A program made the position numbers and the translations under genes. A stretch of 64,000 nt of DNA. Source: Candidatus Brocadiaceae bacterium. GTDB lineage: Bacteria; Planctomycetota; Brocadiia; SM23-32. Under the pieces are notes generated by a model that worked only from the letters and a program-made list of their open reading frames with translations, was not told the origin of the DNA and did not search any database. Below are positions 545 through 18,160 of the stretch, in pieces (the stretch's first letter is position 1; the number at the start of each line of letters is the position of its first letter). The stretch lies in assembly GCA_003551305.1 (NCBI GenBank), contig PUMJ01000050.1, forward strand, positions 12,073-76,072. Direction: 5' to 3'.

Positions 545-1516
545 TTGCGGACTCGCGGAAAGGAGGGGCACGTGAGCATAGCGCTTCAAGGCGAAAATGA
601 ACGTGACGGACCTGAACCGCTGTACGAAACTGATCTCGGAACGTGCTACGTTGGGGATTCAAGGGACATCCTACCTTATGTGCCTTCTGATTCCATCGAC
701 CTGCTGATCACTTCGCCTCCGTTCGCCCTGACACGGAAGAAGGAGTACGGCAACAAAGACTCGGATCAATACGTGGATTGGTTTCTGACCTTCGTGCCCG
801 AGATTCATCGCGTGCTGAAGCCGAGAGGCAGCTTTGTGCTCGACCTCGGGGGTGCCTATCTTCCCGGGGCTCCGGTTCGGACGATCTACCAGTTCGACCT
901 CTTGGTCAGACTCTGCAAAGATTACGAGTTTTACCTTGCCCAAGAGTTTTTCCACTACAATCCTTCCCGGCTGCCCTCACCGGCAGAATGGGTGAACATT
1001 CGCCGCATTCGAGTGAAGGATGCCGTCAACTTGGTCTGGTGGTTGTCCATTACGGAAAATCCCAAGGCGGACAACACCCGTGTGCTGAAACCGTATAGCG
1101 ACAGCATGGAGACTCTTCTGAAAAACGGCTACAAAACCAAGCGACGGCCCAGTGGCCACAAGATATCGGGGAACTTCGCAAGACGTAACGATGGTGCAAT
1201 TCCTCCGAATCTACTTGAATTACCCAATACACGCAGCAACACGCTGTATCTGCGTCGGTGTCGTGAACGAGGCCTGAAACCACATCCGGCGCGCTTCCCG
1301 GAGGAGTTTCCGGAGTTCTTCATAGATTTTCTGACAGAGCCCGGCGATACGGTCTTGGACATTTTTGCGGGGTCCAACACGACAGGATTCGTGGCCGAAC
1401 GAAAGAGCAGGCAATGGCTGGCCTTCGAGAAGAGTTTGGAGTACGCCAGGGCCAGCGCATTCAGATTTGAAACCCCCGGCGAACTCTTCCCGGACGTGAA
1501 AAATGCGTCAGCTTGA
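545..1516 (+). CDS. DNA methyltransferase, beta-class N4/N6 family (motif IV SPPF precedes motif I FAGSNTTG); probable N4-cytosine MTase
   Basis: Carries DLLITSPPFAL (motif IV) and VLDIFAGSNTTG (motif I) in the beta-class order. An in-frame GTG at 572 behind AAAGGAGGGG is an alternative start. The 3' end overlaps the next gene by 14 nt. Confidence 0.8.
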   Translation: MRTRGKEGHVSIALQGENERDGPEPLYETDLGTCYVGDSRDILPYVPSDSIDLLITSPPFALTRKKEYGNKDSDQYVDWFLTFVPEIHRVLKPRGSFVLDLGGAYLPGAPVRTIYQFDLLVRLCKDYEFYLAQEFFHYNPSRLPSPAEWVNIRRIRVKDAVNLVWWLSITENPKADNTRVLKPYSDSMETLLKNGYKTKRRPSGHKISGNFARRNDGAIPPNLLELPNTRSNTLYLRRCRERGLKPHPARFPEEFPEFFIDFLTEPGDTVLDIFAGSNTTGFVAERKSRQWLAFEKSLEYARASAFRFETPGELFPDVKNASA

Positions 1517-2495
1517 CAAAGAGGGCCTGCTTACACGGGTGCAGCGGGCACTGCGGGAGTGCGGGGCGTGTTTCGAACGGACCTCACCTCGCGGCGAGCA
1601 TCCTGCATACTTTGATCTCTACGAACCTGTTGGACTGAAACTGCGCGTCTACATCTGGAACATCACTCACGGTGGGGCCACGCGTCCTGCTGATGAATAC
1701 CGCATACAAGTTACAGGCGTGGGGAGCCTGCTGGCCAATGATCAGCATAAGACGCTCATCCTCGGCTGGCGCAACGGCTCAGGAATATTCGCCGCCTGGG
1801 ACCCGGTCCGTCACGCTGGGCCGGTGAGCAGTTCGCCCTCCATGCAGATCAAGGAGGAGACTCTCCAGGAGGCTGCCCTGCGGGGAGTATCGCTCTGCTA
1901 CCGGGGTGAGGGCGAGATTACGGTAGCCTTCACACCTTCGATGTTCCTTGCCTATGTTCAGCACCAATCAGGCCTGCATGTGGATGCGCATCCGCCCGAA
2001 TGGGTCCAGGAGGTTAACGAAGCCGTGACCCGAGCGTCGGAGTCGGCTTCGCCGCTTCCTATGCCGGCGGACAAGGCTGATCCGCGCGAGCGGACGGTTA
2101 CAGAGGTGGCGCGCATTGTCAGAGACAGCAGCTTCCGTTCCAGGGTTCTCGGGGCTTATGCCCACAGCTGTGCGGCCTGCGGGCTTCAACTGGACTTGGT
2201 TGAAGCCGCGCATATTGTGCCTGTCCGGCATGCTGAAAGCACGGACGAGACGCCCAATGGGCTGTGCCTGTGTGCTCTACACCACAAAGCGATGGATCAA
2301 GCACTTATCAGGATTGAGGTCGATTACCGGCTTTCCGTGAACCCGGACAGGCTGGAGGATCTGCGCGAGGCGAGAAGGATCAAAGGTCTCAAGGATTTCA
2401 CAGGTGCTTTGCGTGACATGATCAAGCTTCCGCCCGAGCCGAAACTCAGGCCCAATCCGGAGTACATCAAACTTCGCAACTCGCTCAAAACGTAA
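1503..2495 (+). CDS. HNH-motif endonuclease with an uncharacterised N-terminal domain; putative restriction endonuclease partner of the MTase
   Basis: C-terminal HNH signature SCAACG...AAHIVP...NGLCLCALHH. Translationally coupled to the MTase through a 14-nt overlap, and sits in the same low-GC segment. Confidence 0.65.
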   Translation: MRQLDKEGLLTRVQRALRECGACFERTSPRGEHPAYFDLYEPVGLKLRVYIWNITHGGATRPADEYRIQVTGVGSLLANDQHKTLILGWRNGSGIFAAWDPVRHAGPVSSSPSMQIKEETLQEAALRGVSLCYRGEGEITVAFTPSMFLAYVQHQSGLHVDAHPPEWVQEVNEAVTRASESASPLPMPADKADPRERTVTEVARIVRDSSFRSRVLGAYAHSCAACGLQLDLVEAAHIVPVRHAESTDETPNGLCLCALHHKAMDQALIRIEVDYRLSVNPDRLEDLREARRIKGLKDFTGALRDMIKLPPEPKLRPNPEYIKLRNSLKT

Positions 2496-2853: not shown

Positions 2854-3627
2854 CTACAGACCCCGGGAGCGCCACATGCGGTGGAAGAAACAGGCGCCCA
2901 GGAACATCACCACGGTGAATCCCACCAGGGCCACCAGCGCCACCCAGACCGGGAAGTAGGGCTCCTGCCCGAAACCCGTCCTGATGAGGTCCGCCGCGTA
3001 GGACAGGGGCGAAATGGGCGATATCCACTGCGCCCAACTCGGCATCTCCGCTATGGGCAGGAAGACGCCGCTGACGAACAGCAGCGGCAGGCGCACCAGG
3101 TTCGAAAGCAGCATGATGTTGGACGGGCTGCTGGCCGGCGGCGACGCCAGAAGCACCCCGAGCGTGGCGAAGCTGAGCGCCCCGAGCACGACGCCGCAGA
3201 TCAGAAGCGGCAGGCTCGTGATGACCGAGTCCGTAAGCGCCAGCCCCAGCACCACGGGCACCACCGAGAGGCACGCCCCGAAGAGCAGCCCGCTGGTGAT
3301 GTCGCCCAGCAGGATGGCGCGCAAAGACAGGGGCGAGGAGATGAGCCGCTCGTAGGTCCGGGCGTTCCGCTCCCACGGGGTCACCAGCGGCCCGACGGCG
3401 CTGGCGGTGAACCACAGCGCCATCGCCACCATGCCCGGCACGATGGCGTCCGCCGCGATGGGCCGGCCCATCAGGAAGGTGAGGAAAAAGAAAACGGGGA
3501 ACAGCACCCCGAAGATCAACACCGGGGGCTTCAGGTAGTAGAGCATCGAGTTCTTCTTGGCGATGACGTAGACGCCGTGGGCCTGCCGGCGCCAGGTCCG
3601 GATTCCTTCGCTCACGGTGTCACTCAT
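2854..3627 (-). CDS. ABC-2 family transporter permease
   Basis: Six hydrophobic helices and ABC-2 type permease architecture. Overlaps the upstream ATPase gene by 8 nt. Confidence 0.75.
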   Translation of the reverse strand: MSDTVSEGIRTWRRQAHGVYVIAKKNSMLYYLKPPVLIFGVLFPVFFFLTFLMGRPIAADAIVPGMVAMALWFTASAVGPLVTPWERNARTYERLISSPLSLRAILLGDITSGLLFGACLSVVPVVLGLALTDSVITSLPLLICGVVLGALSFATLGVLLASPPASSPSNIMLLSNLVRLPLLFVSGVFLPIAEMPSWAQWISPISPLSYAADLIRTGFGQEPYFPVWVALVALVGFTVVMFLGACFFHRMWRSRGL

Positions 3628-4564
3628 TGCGGTCCTCCTCGATCGGCTGTCCTGTCAGTTCCAGGAACACGTCTTCCAGGCTCGGCTTGCAGGTGGCTAT
3701 CTCCGCGATGTCAACTCCGCGGCGCTCGGCGAGCCTGACCACCTCCGTGGCGACCCGGCCGGGCTGCTCCGAGTAGAGGCGGAAGCCGCCGGCCCGGCTC
3801 AGGCGCTTCACCCCCGCCAGCGCGGCAAGCTCATCCTCCGGCGGGAGGCCGTCGGTGAAGCTGACCTGCACGTACTGGCTCGACTTCATCGCGTCGCGGA
3901 GCTGGTCCGGGGTGTCTATGGCGACGATGCGGCCCTTGTTGATGATGGCCACCCGGTCGCAGACCTCCTCGGCCTCGGCCATGTTGTGCGTGGTGAGGAA
4001 GACGGTCAGGCCCTCCCGGTTCATGTCGCGCACGATGTTGCGTATCAGGCGGGCGCTGTGCACGTCGAGGCCGCTGGTCGGCTCGTCCAGGAAGAGTATC
4101 TCCGGCCCGCTCACCAGGGCCGAGCAGAGCATCAGGCGCTGGCGCAGGCCCTTGGAGAGGGCGCGGGCTTTCTGCCCTTTGCGGTCGCCCAGGCCGAGAT
4201 TCTTGAGCAGGCGCTCGCCTTCCTCCTCCCGGCGGGCGCGCGGCACGCCGTGCAACTCCGCCATGAGCATCACGTTGCGCCAGACGCTCAGGTCCAGGTA
4301 AACGTTCGCCTCTTCCGGCACGATGCCCAGGTGTGCGCGGGCGTTGAGCGGGTCCCTGCGGATGTCGTGTCCCTGGATGGTCGCCGTGCCCCCGGTGGGG
4401 TCTATGACGCCCGTGAGCATGCGGACGGTCGTCGTCTTGCCCGCCCCGTTGGGGCCGAGGAAGCCGAAGACCTCGCCTTTGTTGACTTCGAACTCGACCC
4501 GGTCCACGGCGGTCAGTTCCCCGAACCGCCGCGTCAGGCCGCGGACCTCAATGCAGGAGGTCAT
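3620..4564 (-). CDS. ABC transporter ATP-binding protein
   Basis: Walker A GPNGAGKTT, signature LSKGLRQRL, Walker B LFLDEPTSGLD. Confidence 0.9.
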   Translation of the reverse strand: MTSCIEVRGLTRRFGELTAVDRVEFEVNKGEVFGFLGPNGAGKTTTVRMLTGVIDPTGGTATIQGHDIRRDPLNARAHLGIVPEEANVYLDLSVWRNVMLMAELHGVPRARREEEGERLLKNLGLGDRKGQKARALSKGLRQRLMLCSALVSGPEILFLDEPTSGLDVHSARLIRNIVRDMNREGLTVFLTTHNMAEAEEVCDRVAIINKGRIVAIDTPDQLRDAMKSSQYVQVSFTDGLPPEDELAALAGVKRLSRAGGFRLYSEQPGRVATEVVRLAERRGVDIAEIATCKPSLEDVFLELTGQPIEEDRNE

Positions 4565-5217
4565 GTCTGTTGTCTCTCCTTGTCTTTCTCAAAGATGAGC
4601 CACATGCCGAGCCCCGTGTCGGGGTCGTCTTCGGGCAGGGCCCCCTCGCCGACCACCTGGACGCGCTCCAGGCCGGCCTGGCGGGCCCAGCGGCGGAACG
4701 TCTCCGGCTTGCGGACCTCCTCGAAGGCGCGGACCGCCTCAGGACCTTTCTTGCGCACGCTCTGGCGGCGACGGCGGATGAACTCCCGCCGCGCCCACAG
4801 GGGATAGGTTTTGCCCAGCCCCCCGCCGAGCATGGCTTTGCCGCCGGGACGCAGCGCGCGGTGGACCTCTCGCACCCCGGCCGGCGGATCGTCCCAGAAG
4901 TAGATGGAGCCGCGGCTGACGACCAGGTCGGCGCAGCCGCGGGCGAGCGGAAGCGACTCCGCTCGCCCCACGACCGGCACCATTCGTCCCTGCAGGCCGC
5001 GCTCAGCGGCCGTCGCCAGCGCCCGCTGCAGGGCCTCTACGTCGGGGTCCAGCAGGACCAGAACGCCGTCTGTGCGCTCGGCCAGCGCGAAACCCAGCGG
5101 GCCTTCGCCGCAGCCAAGGTCAACCCAGACGCCCTGTTGCGGGCTGCACATCTGCATGACATCATGGACGACACACCGGTAGTAGTCCGGCAGGTCGTCG
5201 GCCTGTTGAGCCGGCAT
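4561..5217 (-). CDS. Class I SAM-dependent methyltransferase (small; possibly ArsM-like)
   Basis: Motif I VDLGCGEG, Rossmann-like MTase fold, several Cys residues before motif I. Its 3' end overlaps the ATPase start by 4 nt. Confidence 0.7.
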   Translation of the reverse strand: MPAQQADDLPDYYRCVVHDVMQMCSPQQGVWVDLGCGEGPLGFALAERTDGVLVLLDPDVEALQRALATAAERGLQGRMVPVVGRAESLPLARGCADLVVSRGSIYFWDDPPAGVREVHRALRPGGKAMLGGGLGKTYPLWARREFIRRRRQSVRKKGPEAVRAFEEVRKPETFRRWARQAGLERVQVVGEGALPEDDPDTGLGMWLIFEKDKERQQT

Positions 5218-5247
5218 GTGGCGTCACCCGAAGCAGTTATCGGCGGA

Positions 5248-5658
5248 TCACACGCAGGGGTGGTCCGCCCCGTCGCCGTGGCATTCCCGGACCTGCTCGG
5301 GGGAGCACTCGGCGGGCTTGCCCTCCAGCTTCTCGGGGTTCTCGCAGTCCCCGAGTATCTCGTCGGCCTCGTCACAGGTGGGCCGCTCCTCGCAGGCCAG
5401 GCATTCAGCCGGTGTGCAATCGGCGGCGTTTTCGACGCAGGGGTGGCCCTGAACGTCGCCGTGGCACTCCCGGATCTGCTCCGGCGTGCAGTCCTCCGGC
5501 TTGCCCTTCAGCTTGTCCGGCTGTTCACAGACGGCAGTTCCGACGCAGGGGTGGTCCTGAACGTCACCGTGGCACTCCCGGATCTGCTCCGGCGTGCAGT
5601 CCTGCGGCTTGCCCTTCAGCTTGTCCGGTTGCCGGCATCCTTCATGTCCGGTACACAT
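5248..5658 (-). CDS. Cys/His-rich tandem-repeat protein (3 units of ~36 aa, each C-x12-C-x7-C-H-G-D-x3-H-P-C); putative metal or metalloid binding
   Basis: Start MCTGHEG is preceded by GGAGGAGG. The repeats are visible at both DNA and protein level. The 5' end overlaps the arsR stop. Confidence 0.6.
   Translation of the reverse strand: MCTGHEGCRQPDKLKGKPQDCTPEQIRECHGDVQDHPCVGTAVCEQPDKLKGKPEDCTPEQIRECHGDVQGHPCVENAADCTPAECLACEERPTCDEADEILGDCENPEKLEGKPAECSPEQVRECHGDGADHPCV
5433..5640 (-). repeat. Intragenic ~108-bp tandem repeat (2 near-identical units, plus a third diverged unit at ~5280-5400)
   Basis: Unit 5433-5540 versus 5541-5640: >90% identical, in-frame, 36 codons each. Confidence 0.8.
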
Positions 5659-5954
5659 GACTCCTCCTCCTTTTCGGCCGGGGGCGTGAGCACGTGGGTG
5701 ATCACGCGCCGGCACTCCTCAAGTCTCTCGCGGTTCACACGATAGTGCGCGAAATTGCCCTGTTTTTCGCGTTCAACCAGTCCGGCGTCGCGCAGTATGC
5801 GCAGGTGCTGGCTGACGGCGGCGGACGTCATGTCCAGCCGGGCCGCCAGCGCCCCGACGCACAGGACGCGTTCCTCCAGCAACTGCACGATCTGAACGCG
5901 TGCGGCGACGCCGAAAAGCTTGAACAGCCGCGCGGCCTCTTCCGGGTCAATCAT
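5616..5954 (-). CDS. ArsR/SmtB family metal(loid)-responsive transcriptional repressor
   Basis: Winged-HTH ArsR signature ...LCVGALAARL...AAVSQHLRILRDAGLV. Strong RBS AAAGGAGGTG before the ATG. Confidence 0.85.
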   Translation of the reverse strand: MIDPEEAARLFKLFGVAARVQIVQLLEERVLCVGALAARLDMTSAAVSQHLRILRDAGLVEREKQGNFAHYRVNRERLEECRRVITHVLTPPAEKEEESCVPDMKDAGNRTS

Positions 5955-5959
5955 CGCGC

Positions 5960-6010
5960 ACCTCCTTTAAGCGCTTGCGTATATGCTAACATACTTAAAG
6001 TCCCTGTCAA
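5960..6010 (-). promoter_or_regulatory. Putative arsR operon promoter with overlapping inverted repeat (candidate ArsR operator)
   Basis: AT-rich stretch with a TTGACA -35 (minus strand; plus-strand tgtcaa at 6005-6010). Inverted repeat TTAAG-N22-CTTAA at 5967-5998, immediately upstream of the arsR RBS. Confidence 0.4.
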
Positions 6011-11131: not shown

Positions 11132-12024
11132 TCAGTAGTTTTCCAGATATTCGTCCGGTTCCATCCCGTCCATCAGCTCGCGCCAGAACGAGGGGGACGG
11201 TCGGTTGACCTCGACCATGACCTCTTCGGCGTCCTCGAGGAACTCGTGGAGGGCGCGGGTGAGGGGCAGTTCGAAGCCGCGTCGTTCGGCCTCGGCCAGG
11301 TAGTAGGCGAGTTGCCCGGACTTGACGCCCACATCCGTCGCCCTGCCCTGGGGTATCAGGTGGGCGAGGTCGGCCAGTTCCCGGCGCCATCCGTCCTCGC
11401 CGCCGACGCCGCGGATGACGGCCTCCAGCTCTGCGCCGGCCCGCACGCCCAGGGCCAGCGCCTCCAGCAGGGCGGCGCGGCGCAGGCCCATGGCAAGCTG
11501 GTTTACGCCTTTGACGACCTGGCCGCAGCCGCTGGGCCCGCAGTAGACGATGTGGTCGGGCTCGCCGAGCACCTCCAGCAGGGGGCGGTGGCGCTCGAAC
11601 ACGGCCCGCTCGCCGCCGGCGAACATGCGCAACGTGCCGGCCCTGGCCCCGCCGGCCCCCCCGCTGACGGGCACGTCCAGCAACGTGGCGTCGCGCTCGG
11701 CGAACTCGTTGGCCAGCCGGCGCGTCCGGGGTGGCGCCACTGTCCCCAGGTCTATGAATACCTGGTGCGGCCGGGCGTTGGGTACAAGCTCCGCCTCGGC
11801 CACCTCGACGAAGGTCCGGGAATGGGGCAGGGAGGTCAGCACGGGGTCGGCCCGGCAGGCGACATCGGCGGCGGATTCGGCGGGCGCCGCGCCCGCCTCC
11901 ACCGCGACCTCCAGCGCCTCGGGCGCGATGTCGTACGCGATCAGGGGGTAACCTGCGGCGAGGAGGTTGCGCGCCATGGGCCCGCCCATGGACCCGAGTC
12001 CGATAAAGCCGGTTTCCGAGGACA
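11132..12024 (-). CDS. NAD(P)-dependent oxidoreductase, 3-hydroxyisobutyrate dehydrogenase / 6PGDH-like family
   Basis: N-terminal GFIGLGSMGGPMARNL dinucleotide-binding motif. Start taken at MSSETGF (12024), not the upstream extension. Lies 21 nt upstream of dprA on the same strand. Confidence 0.8.
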
Positions 12025-12235
12025 TGTCGGGTTCTCCGATCAGTGAGTAGGTGCGGTTTGCCCGAGCGGGGCCGTGCGGCTCCAGTATACGAGCCGGCGG
12101 CAGGCTTTGCACCCGCCACGGGGAGCGCCGGGTACTTGACACCGACGCCTCGTGATAATAGGGTAAATGGTACGTGGCGGGTCCATTAGGAGCGCGCCAT
12201 GAGGTTCTCGAAGCTTACCGGAGGTTGAGCGGGCC

Positions 12236-13966
12236 ATGATTGCTCTGTCAGATCGTCGCTGGCCGTTTGCTGCCGTTGCTCTGCTGGTGGTGGCCCTGGC
12301 GGTTGCCGTGCTACCTACCGGTTGCGGCAGACCGGATGATCCGGAGTTTTACGTCCAGCAGTTGGCCAGCGAGCGGGACGAGACGCGGCGACGCGCCATT
12401 GAAGAGCTGACGCGGATGCAGGAGCGCGCCATACCCGCCATCGAGGAAGGGCTGCAAAGCGACGATCCCCGGGTGCGTTCCGCCTGCCTGCAGGTGCTGG
12501 GCAGGACGCGCCGGATAAGCTCCCTGCTGACGGCCGGCGAGATGCTGGACGACCCCGACGAGGACGTTCGCCTCCAGGCCATCGAGACAGTGGCCGAACT
12601 GTCCGCCGTCTGGACCGAGAGGAGCACTGAACTGCTGGGCAAGGCGCTGCGCCAGGACAACCCCGAGGTGATCCAGAGAGCCGCCCAGGGTCTGAGGGAA
12701 CTGCACGAAGCCGAGGCCATCGAGGTACTGCGTCAGGAGTATGAACAAGGGGATGGGTTGTCCGCCATCTATGCCGCCCGCCACCTCTACGAGGAAGAAC
12801 CCGCGCCGGAGATCGCGCGCTTCCTGCTGGAATCGGTGCGCGCGGGCGCAGATGATGAAATCGAGGCCGCCCGCTCCGCCCTGAAGGAGCTGCAAGACCG
12901 CATCGTGCCGGAACTGGTCGAGTTCGCCGGCCGGCACGGCGGCCGCCCGGAGGAGTTGCTGATCGAGACCCGCGACGACCTGATAGCCGAACTGAACCGA
13001 ATACTGGATGCCCGACGGGCGCAGGACATCCTGGCCGCCCTCGGCGTGATAGCCGATGAGCCGAGCGTCGAGAAGCTGATCACCGACATGCAGGACACGC
13101 GCCTGCAGAGTTCCTGGCGCGTGGCGGCGGCCGACGCCCTGGGCACGGCGGCCGCCTCCGACCGCAGCACCCGCCCGCTACGGCGCCGCATCACCGAAGC
13201 GCTCAACCAGACGATGGACAGGGGCAGGGAAGACAACCGCGTCCGGATAGCGGCGGCCATCTCCCTGTGCCGGCTGCGCCAGGACTCCGGTGTCGAATAC
13301 CTGCTGACACAGCTCGACCGGTTCCAGGACATCGTCGGCGGCGAGCAGAGGCTCAGCGGTTCGGAACTGGACGCCCTGAAAGAACTGCGCATCCGCGCCC
13401 AGGAAGCCCTGACGGCCTCCGGCGAGTTCGTGGTCGAGCCCCTGCGCCAGAGGCTCACGGCGGATGAAGAACCCGGCCCGATCATCATCTGGGCGGCGGT
13501 CAAGACCTTCGGCGAGCTGAGGGTCGATGACACGGTGCCGCTTATGCGCCGGTTCATCCTGGACCGGCGCGAGCCCACCGAACAGCGTCCGCTCATAGAG
13601 GTCCGGGAAGACGGGCAACTGAGCGTGGAAGTGGTCCTGCCCAACTGGCAGGAACCCGACGAACAGGAAGTCCGGGCTTTGATCGACGAGCTGGAGCCGT
13701 TCAGGTATCCGGAATACGTGCGATGGACGGTGGCCAACGCGCTGCGGCAGATAGGCGGGCAGGAAGCCGAGGACATCCTGGCCGAGGCCGCCGGCGAGAA
13801 GCAGGACTTCGTGGACCGGCTGCGCGCCAACCAGGACCTGCGGGACTACCACATGCGCGCGCCCGTCATCGAAGGGCTTATTGCCCGCCACGAGGATGTG
13901 CTCTTCTACGTGAGGCTGGCGATGGAGCAGCTCGGCATGCCGCTGGTGGCTCAGACGGGGTCGTAA
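12236..13966 (+). CDS. HEAT/PBS-lyase repeat lipoprotein
   Basis: Lipoprotein-type signal (..LPTGCG) followed by many HEAT-like repeats (DP.VR..A...LG). Confidence 0.7.
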
Positions 13967-17730: not shown

Positions 17731-18160
17731 TGTGGCTCCAATGCTTTGAGTGAGAGGTCAACCCGCTCCCTGCGGGCCTATCCTCATTATATGAGCCCGC
17801 CGCCCGGAACGCCACCCCGTCCGTCCCGACGGACTCGTGTTGTCGGGGCGCCGCCGCCCCAACGGGACGCCGCTCCGAAAGAGCGCCATATACCAGCCCC
17901 GGGCGCAGCCCGGGGTCCCCCGAACGCCCCCGAAACCCGCGCCCTGAATGGGCGCCACAGGGGTTGCAGGAGGAATGCGTGGCATCCGCCTGCCCTGTCT
18001 GCGTGCAAGGCGCAGGCCGGCGCAAACCGGCAGTCGGAAAAAGCGGCGGCAAGCGGCGCGCTCACAGAGCGCGCCGCACTCCAGGGGACGCGGCCCGGAC
18101 GATGCAGGGCTGTGCGACATGCACGAACGGTGATCACTGGAGTCCGGACCGGCGTTTCGT

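Follow-up and report, generated by a model that had tools for sequence, protein, structure and literature searches.

Introduction

ArsR/SmtB repressors are the textbook model of bacterial metal sensing, and detailed catalogues of their sensing sites exist. Their control of Cys-rich metal-binding proteins is an established arrangement (PMC8790569). Here we analyse a locus from a Candidatus Brocadiaceae bacterium, lying within a 64,000-nucleotide (nt) stretch of contig PUMJ01000050.1 that is called the window as a whole, in which an ArsR/SmtB-family repressor gene, arsR, overlaps a gene for a Cys4His2-repeat protein, labelled CR throughout. We lean towards reading CR as the effector-binding domain that one ArsR subfamily carries at its C-terminus, here in free-standing form, a detachable module for a metal or another thiol-reactive effector that would control efflux.

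Several described systems resemble this locus. SmtB-SmtA and AzuR-NmtA (BmtA, PF02069) also comprise a small cytosolic Cys/His-rich protein encoded beside, and presumably under the control of, an ArsR/SmtB-family repressor, and in them, too, His participates alongside Cys. In contrast to these metallothioneins, to which it has no sequence or profile match, CR is built of repeated 32-residue modules with many conserved non-ligand residues. Its gene appears to be co-transcribed with arsR, and often overlaps it, rather than being divergent; an exporter is encoded within the operon; many genomes encode the module as a fusion to ArsR; and its ArsR has one Cys and no alpha5 site. In Enterococcus hirae, the winged-helix repressor CopY carries a C-terminal Cys cluster and the small metallochaperone CopZ delivers metal to it. 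This pair is a precedent for both the fused form and the trans-acting free form of the CR module. However, CopY is a BlaI/MecI family protein with a CxCx4CxC motif and CopZ adopts the HMA fold with an MxCxxC motif, and the CR system matches neither HMA nor CopY.

The arsRDAB operon shares with the CR locus the gene order repressor, small Cys-containing protein, transport ATPase and membrane transporter, with ArsD acting as a metallochaperone that feeds the ATPase and also as a weak repressor. The CR system differs in lacking an ArsD (PF06953) or ArsA match, in using a DrrA-type ABC ATPase with an ABC-2 permease, and in an ArsR whose CVC As(III) site is cut to one Cys. The closest structural logic is that of the CadC alpha3N site and of the Acidithiobacillus ArsR, in which an alpha3 Cys is combined with Cys from a terminal extension, sometimes that of the other protomer; those extensions are short tails with two or three Cys, whereas the CR module comprises one or two autonomous Cys4His2 domains and is separable as a gene. 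The tandem HMA domains of P1B-ATPases are similarly a variable number of small autonomous metal-binding modules attached to, or serving, an efflux system, but their fold and motif are unrelated and the CR modules sit on the regulator rather than the pump. By analogy, CR would work most like SmtB/SmtA, CopY/CopZ and ArsR/ArsD-ArsAB, although it belongs to none of the protein families concerned, since every profile test failed.

Results

The CR gene lies in an arsR-headed operon and looks translated

On the minus strand of the window the genes are ordered arsR, CR, methyltransferase, ABC ATPase and ABC-2 permease:

5616-5954, minus strand: arsR, an ArsR/SmtB-family repressor of 112 amino acids (aa) (PF01022, E = 1.8e-15; NF033788)
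5661-5672, minus strand: Shine-Dalgarno (SD) sequence AAGGAGGAGGAG, inside the 3' end of arsR, read directly from the sequence
5248-5658, minus strand: CR gene, encoding a 136-aa Cys4His2-repeat protein with three units and a Cys4 linker (from the open reading frame (ORF) and its translation, GC content by codon position, and homologues)
4561-5217, minus strand: class I S-adenosylmethionine (SAM)-dependent methyltransferase, 218 aa (PF08241, E = 2e-16)
3620-4564, minus strand: DrrA-type ABC transporter ATPase (TIGR01188, 316 bits against a cutoff of 312)
2854-3627, minus strand: ABC-2 type permease (PF01061, E = 1.4e-20)

The CR gene runs from an ATG at 5658-5656 to a stop codon at 5248-5250. 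Its product is small and acidic, with 17 Cys (12.5%) and 7 His in 136 aa, where a first-pass annotation made from the sequence alone had estimated approximately 16 Cys and 8 His in about 137 aa. That annotation had described a genuine Cys/His-rich repeat protein, which the confirmed ORF and exactly three matches to the unit pattern bear out. A strong ribosome-binding site (AAGGAGGAGGAG) ends 2 nt before the CR ATG, and an SD-like motif is found at the equivalent place in nearly all CR relatives. GC content by codon position is 0.72/0.46/0.84, as in the neighbouring genes, while a long antisense ORF (4570-5745) has no such coding-type signature. Hundreds of CR homologues begin at the same Met-Cys. 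Because of the SD sequence, the codon-position GC signature and the conservation of residues in approximately 350 homologues, the CR ORF looks translated.

By eye, with no predictor run, the CR N-terminus (MCTGHEGC) shows no hydrophobic signal segment. Attachment of c-type haem through CXnCH motifs was rejected on the export that it would require, as there is no signal segment and the module is fused elsewhere to a cytoplasmic DNA-binding domain.

CR units occur in free proteins and at the C-terminus of ArsR-family regulators

A word-indexed search returned 350 CR homologues, an exhaustive hidden Markov model (HMM) search returned 355 clusters at 50% identity, 66 of them with E <= 1e-10, and a scan of one genome per species found a CR relative in 523 genomes. 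Taxonomic and environmental labels were taken from the best 80 genome loci of these 523 genomes. All 80 come from metagenome-assembled, uncultured bacteria, many of them from sediment, including soda-lake and hypersaline sites. Their labels cover Planctomycetota (Brocadiia, Phycisphaerae), Lentisphaerota, other PVC-group bacteria and Syntrophomonadaceae, as well as Desulfobacterota, Chloroflexota, Acetothermia, TA06, WS1, Fibrobacterota and Armatimonadota.

Four architectures were found besides that of the window. Free two-unit proteins of about 76 aa are the commonest form; there are also free single-unit proteins of approximately 45-60 aa, two proteins with the order unit, Cys4 linker, unit (P0001 and P0011), and ArsR-family regulators, 155-200 aa long, that end in one or two units. 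The fused homologues match PF01022 at E = 1e-11 to 1e-17, and the names and accessions of the clusters that contain them are uninformative. Among 73 loci with an upstream ArsR, the CR module is fused to it in 12, its gene overlaps arsR in 44 and closely follows it in the remaining 17. The first-pass annotation had missed both that the repeat unit is the C-terminal domain of an ArsR subfamily and that its gene belongs to an operon with arsR, a methyltransferase and an ABC-2 exporter.

Conservation of the unit indicates a folded mini-domain of an unannotated family

The CR protein contains three copies of a 32-aa unit with the spacing C-x12-C-x7-CH-x5-H-x-C, and a Cys-rich linker between the second and third:

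5542-5637, minus strand: unit 1, aa 8-39, CRQPDKLKGKPQDCTPEQIRECHGDVQDHPCV (pattern match)
5434-5529, minus strand: unit 2, aa 44-75, CEQPDKLKGKPEDCTPEQIRECHGDVQGHPCV (91.7% DNA identity to unit 1)
5377-5421, minus strand: linker mini-module C-x4-C-x2-C-x5-C, aa 80-94, CTPAECLACEERPTC (between units 2 and 3)
5251-5346, minus strand: unit 3, aa 105-136, CENPEKLEGKPAECSPEQVRECHGDGADHPCV (76-77% DNA identity to units 1 and 2)

An alignment of 287 units gave the consensus C-[EQ]-x-P-E-K-L-K-G-K-P-E-[ED]-C-[ST]-P-E-Q-I-[RK]-E-C-H-G-D-x3-H-P-C, in which the four Cys and the His of the CH pair are invariant and the second His is 96% conserved. In 54 two-unit proteins and in 118 units, the C, C, CH, H and C positions were likewise invariant or at least 90% conserved, as were P4, L7, P11, E17, Q18, I19, G24 and P30. 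In the alignment of 287 units these non-ligand positions and P16 are 82-97% conserved. Because so many non-ligand residues are strongly conserved, the alignment indicates that the unit folds as a separate mini-domain, unlike a loose peptide rich in thiols or a loose metallothionein.

Searches of Pfam and NCBIfam with the window protein, 54 homologues and the fused proteins gave nothing above noise except the ArsR helix-turn-helix; the sub-threshold hits reflected Cys composition (LRRCT, RGM_N, IMUP). Sequence and profile searches of the Protein Data Bank (PDB) with CR were empty, and its structure model, of moderate confidence, had no fold match, in keeping with the first-pass annotation, in which the repeat was not recognised as a named domain. 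The zinc-ribbon or knuckle-like fold suggested there did not hold up, as the units contain no CxxC and the predicted structure is a loop with one helix. Membership in the bacterial metallothionein family BmtA/SmtA was rejected, since PF02069 had no match at E <= 1 for the window protein or at E <= 0.1 for the 54 homologues, as were ArsD (PF06953) and HMA (PF00403), neither of which appeared in the Pfam results. A literature search found no description of the repeat family. The hgcAB-associated ArsR of the literature is a different ArsR, and the HgcA cap-helix motif occurs neither in the window nor in any of the loci. The CR family is unannotated.

The partner ArsR retains a single conserved Cys

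The window ArsR belongs to the ArsR/SmtB family (NF033788, 84 bits against a cutoff of 55), with a winged helix-turn-helix of the HTH_5 type. Helix alpha3 of the partner ArsRs reads LCVGAL, the canonical CVC being reduced to a single residue, Cys32, which is the sole invariant Cys in 66 of 66 partner ArsRs. Of 16 partner ArsRs whose genes lie clear of the CR gene, 12 contain no Cys other than Cys32. No alpha5 ligands are conserved in the partner ArsRs, and a comparison with the canonical metal(loid) sites of the family (alpha3 C-x-C(-x2-C), alpha3N, and alpha5 D/H-x-H-x10-H-x2-E/H) found none of them complete. To our knowledge, one thiol per protomer is insufficient for any known ArsR-family sensing site. 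Our main argument that the CR module supplies the effector-binding function rests on this single-Cys ArsR together with the gene fusions.

The same observations bear on whether CR could be only a metallothionein-like sink, sequestering excess metal with no signalling role while ArsR senses by itself. The composition of the protein, the 1 to 3 units found per protein and the position beside an ArsR-family gene, as in SmtB/SmtA and AzuR/NmtA (PMC8790569), would all suit a sink. Fusion of the unit to ArsR in many lineages would however be needless for a pure sink, the partner ArsR, with one conserved Cys that is often its only one, has no sensing site of its own, and the strongly conserved non-ligand residues and missing PF02069 match are unlike metallothioneins. 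We therefore regard a sink without signalling as rather unlikely.

Overlap of arsR with CR, and internal start sites in fused genes

In the window, arsR and the CR gene overlap by 43 nt (5616-5658). Overlaps of 43-52 nt are found in the 44 overlapping loci of the 73, for example L009-L011, L013, L017 and L021-L044, and in 40 of the 44 the overlap is congruent to 1 modulo 3, placing CR in the -1 frame relative to arsR. The arsR stop codon is a TGA formed from the conserved Leu-Lys codons (CTG AAR) of unit 1, and the ATG-TGY that encodes the first Met-Cys of CR is read as Cys in the arsR frame, so that overlapping ArsRs always gain a Cys in their tail. Of 38 distinct overlapping loci, 8 contain slippery heptamers for a programmed -1 frameshift from arsR into CR; their positions are scattered, and the window contains none. 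Since no slippery heptamer (X XXY YYZ) is conserved, programmed frameshifting is unlikely.

In the fused ArsR-CR genes an in-frame Met stands directly before the module in 13 of 13 distinct genes, and 11 of these 13 have an AGGAG-like SD motif 5-17 nt before this internal Met, compared with 4.5% of 5027 control internal ATGs. The amino acids that encode the internal SD motif differ by lineage (ERR, GKE, QKE, EE). This suggests that internal initiation may also yield the free module from fused genes, although the loci are not phylogenetically independent and we treat the pattern as a lead rather than a result. Fused genes are found at L004:6001-6591, L008:6001-6471, L045, L048, L058, L089, L103, L107, L153, L154 and L156.

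A candidate ArsR operator overlaps a promoter-like sequence upstream of arsR

Two elements were identified before the arsR start codon:

5983-6010, minus strand: promoter-like TTGACA-16-TAGCAT (TG-extended), upstream of arsR (10/12 matches; 0.1 sites expected in shuffled sequences)
5979-5994, minus strand: imperfect palindrome GTATGTTAGCATATAC, a candidate ArsR operator overlapping the -10 hexamer (from palindromes at related loci)

In relatives, the region before arsR contains TTGAC(A), a -10-like hexamer and, just ahead of the start codon, the palindrome TTAG(C/T)-N4-10-(A/G)CTAA. This arrangement is consistent with arsR autoregulation. The palindrome was seen at L001, L011, L026, L028, L041, L065, L072, L076 and other loci. 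Only a few nt separate the end of the inverted repeat from the arsR ATG, so many of the transcripts may have little or no leader.

An ABC-2 exporter is the most frequent downstream partner

In the window, 30 nt lie between the CR and methyltransferase genes, methyltransferase and ATPase overlap by 4 nt, and ATPase and permease by 8 nt. The same gene order is found in loci L001, L002 and L003 and in many genome loci, and after fused ArsR-CR genes the next genes are those for the ABC ATPase and ABC-2 permease (L004-008, L156-158). Of 49 genome loci that include 3 kb or more of downstream sequence, 42 (86%) have an ABC ATPase, 35 a detectable ABC-2 permease and 23 (47%) the methyltransferase. Alternative transporters at CR loci are split ArsP_1 permeases (L009-011) and an AcrB-type RND pump (L016). 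Genes for an ECF sigma factor, a zf-HC2 anti-sigma factor and a Metal_resist protein recur near CR in two unrelated loci.

The exporter bears on a further explanation, in which CR would be a redox, persulfide or electrophile sensor whose Cys/His sites give up a structural Zn or an Fe-S cluster on oxidation, persulfidation or alkylation and which passes the signal to ArsR Cys32, for example as a mixed disulfide or polysulfide. BigR and SqrR, sensors of the ArsR family, are the model for such signalling. Recurrent Metal_resist neighbours suggest metals instead, and the loci examined have no recurrent sulfur-oxidation genes (sqr, pdo, rhodanese). The partner ArsR does have weak similarity to BigR (40 bits), but this is far under the cutoff of 155 and the C-terminal Cys of BigR is not conserved. 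Taken with what would fit, namely hosts from sulfidic anoxic sediments, a single Cys at the reactive position of ArsR, an exporter permease without metal ligands and a small DsrE-like gene adjoining L008, we judge a sensor of this kind improbable, a little more so than the sink.

The methyltransferase was considered as an arsenite methyltransferase (ArsM) and rejected. It scored 22-30 bits against ArsM models with cutoffs of 263-575, only C24 is conserved in 35 orthologues, and no ArsM structure was among its PDB matches at E <= 1e-3. The best solved structure match is 3dlc (MMP1179), of uncharacterised function. Within the family a basic segment at the C-terminus (GGGLG..YP.WARREFIRRR) is very highly conserved and the N-terminal part bears the motif LPDYY...C24. 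A protein identical to the window methyltransferase (P0276) is on record from NCBI and Logan. In one lineage a URO-D/MtaA-family gene (PF01208) lies between the methyltransferase and the ABC ATPase (L002:6969-8057, L003:5677-6765).

Given that the methyltransferase gene begins 30 nt downstream of CR and co-occurs with it in 23 of 49 loci, CR might be its substrate or carrier, either as an Ada-like methyl-accepting Zn-thiolate protein or as a Cys-rich peptide that undergoes modification and leaves the cell through the ABC-2 pump, and the URO-D/MtaA-family gene inserted in L002 and L003 would agree with this. Against it, half of the loci have no methyltransferase yet keep ArsR, CR and the ABC-2 exporter; CR carries neither a leader nor a signal sequence, and in many genomes it is joined to a DNA-binding domain that is cytoplasmic; and no RiPP (ribosomally synthesised peptide) maturation enzymes are conserved. 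We consider a substrate or carrier role very improbable.

A model for CR as a detachable effector-binding module

Our preferred reading of CR as an effector-binding module follows from its fusion or adjacency to ArsR, the conserved ligands, the single-Cys partner, the downstream exporter, the metal-stress neighbours, the promoter with its palindrome, and the analogy to known pairs of ArsR/SmtB repressors and Cys-rich proteins. The first-pass annotation had implied metal binding, with which both the Cys/His composition and the genomic context agree and which we infer from these two.

In this model the CR gene would be co-transcribed with arsR, the SAM-dependent methyltransferase and the ABC-2 exporter from an ArsR-controlled promoter, and CR would be a cytoplasmic protein of independent 32-residue Cys4His2 mini-domains. 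Through its four Cys and two His, each unit would bind an ion of a thiophilic metal or metalloid, or some other effector that reacts with thiols. The loaded module, in cis when fused or in trans when free, would engage the ArsR dimer and complete or feed the Cys32 site in helix alpha3, the premise being that this lone invariant Cys could not form a sensing site by itself. The repressor would then leave the operator that overlaps the -10 hexamer and the exporter would be turned on, while CR, as a free, abundant, thiolate-rich protein, would in addition act as an effector buffer. With the duplicated unit and the Cys4 linker, each molecule would offer approximately four binding sites instead of approximately two. 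As a rough split, a soft divalent metal or Cu(I) has about an even chance of being the effector; arsenic or antimony is considerably less probable, reactive sulfur or redox signals slightly less again, and Fe-S the least probable.

A more specific version would be a split two-protein metalloregulator, in which the single-Cys ArsR needs a separate Cys4His2 effector-capturing protein to complete its alpha3 site, and in which fused genes also yield the free module from an internal ribosome-binding site and start codon that they have kept. We hold this version only tentatively. If it were true, the cell could set both the sensor-to-buffer ratio and the number of units, three units being found only in this genome.

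Several points weigh against the effector-binding module. The structure models are of low to moderate confidence (pLDDT 58 and 71), and no relative from a cultured organism is among the best 80 genome loci. Across 45 orthologues of the ABC-2 permease no Cys, His or Met is conserved, so it bears little resemblance to a soft-metal cation pump; the methyltransferase is found in only about half of the loci, with a single conserved Cys and no ArsM signature. At about 15 loci an ArsR was not found directly upstream of CR. One of these is L016 (1489-5309), where no ArsR precedes CR and an AcrB-family RND pump and a 118-aa protein are found instead. The latter has an N-terminal transmembrane segment and a MarR-like winged helix. 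Some Brocadiaceae-type loci share this arrangement, which was also noted downstream in L067.

No principle is overturned by this system, as the logic of a repressor, a thiolate-rich binder and an exporter is already familiar. What would be new is an unannotated, apparently autonomous 32-residue Cys4His2 sensing module, fused or free, that accompanies an ArsR reduced to one ligand. Naming it would allow consistent annotation of hundreds of "hypothetical proteins" and "ArsR family regulators". The module also points to a conserved, uncharacterised ABC-2 efflux system, and is a compact candidate for a metal-binding tag or biosensor part.

Units 1 and 2 of the window protein appear recently duplicated

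The DNA under the first two units forms a tandem repeat:

5433-5628, no strand assigned: tandem DNA repeat with a 108-bp period and 1.8 copies, under units 1 and 2 (Tandem Repeats Finder, 96% matches, score 371)

The 91.7% identity of units 1 and 2 spans 96 nt, with 3 differences in the core 87 nt; divergence of the 21-nt spacer lowers it to 87% when the strict 108-nt register is taken. The first-pass figure of more than 90% identity at the DNA level is correct for this pair and does not extend to unit 3, which is 76-77% identical to either. In 48 distinct genes for two-unit relatives, whose units are mostly 36 aa apart and so match the 108-bp period of the window, inter-unit DNA identity is 60-87% with a median of 71%. 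The 92% pair of the window is an outlier, since no relative exceeds 87%. Judging from their sequence, units 1 and 2 arose by a recent duplication or conversion that kept the canonical spacing and was added to a rare linker-containing backbone; the first-pass annotation had likewise supposed a duplication.

Its further proposal, a locus prone to repeat expansion and contraction, finds no counterpart among relatives. Three or more units occur in none of 266 homologous proteins and none of 154 related loci, and the copy number in relatives is 1 or 2 and changes only across deep evolutionary distances; ongoing expansion or contraction of CR units is not shown. The linker spacing C-x4-C-x2-C-x5-C is otherwise found only in P0001 and P0011, with their unit-linker-unit order, and the motif is absent from all 154 related loci searched. 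By these searches, the three-unit form with an extra Cys4 linker is unique to the window. Databases hold no exact record for the CR protein or its ArsR, and the closest metagenome relative of CR is 72% identical and has two units.

Recent tandem copies raise the question of assembly. The third unit could be an artefact if the pair of units 1 and 2 were a mis-assembly of two strain alleles, the ORF itself being real. Repeats of 108 bp at 92-96% identity are difficult for short-read assemblers, and no relative has three units. An independent assembly, Logan contig L155 (run SRR490150), equals window positions 4448-5488 with zero mismatches and stops inside the repeat, which could be counted in favour of an artefact. 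It breaks exactly at the first unit-2-specific k-mer, however, which is the expected behaviour of de Bruijn assembly at a true repeat and implies that both versions are present in the reads. The copies moreover differ at defined sites, in frame and at the canonical 36-aa spacing of the family, and the spacers before each unit differ and are not allelic. An artefactual third unit thus seems highly unlikely.

Other features of the window

An Acido-Lenti-1 small RNA (RF01687) matches at 17871-17915 (minus strand) just at threshold, with 37.3 bits against a cutoff of 37 (E = 7e-5). ARAGORN reported a 518-nt permuted tmRNA at 11813-12330 (plus strand), which is probably a false positive, as no Rfam tmRNA reached the gathering threshold. 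A prepilin-peptidase fragment (PF01478) lies at 30-452. At the end of the operon, 545-2495 (plus strand) encodes a probable restriction-modification pair, in which an N6/N4 DNA methylase (PF01555, E = 4e-35) overlaps a protein with MTaX1 and HNH_2 endonuclease domains.

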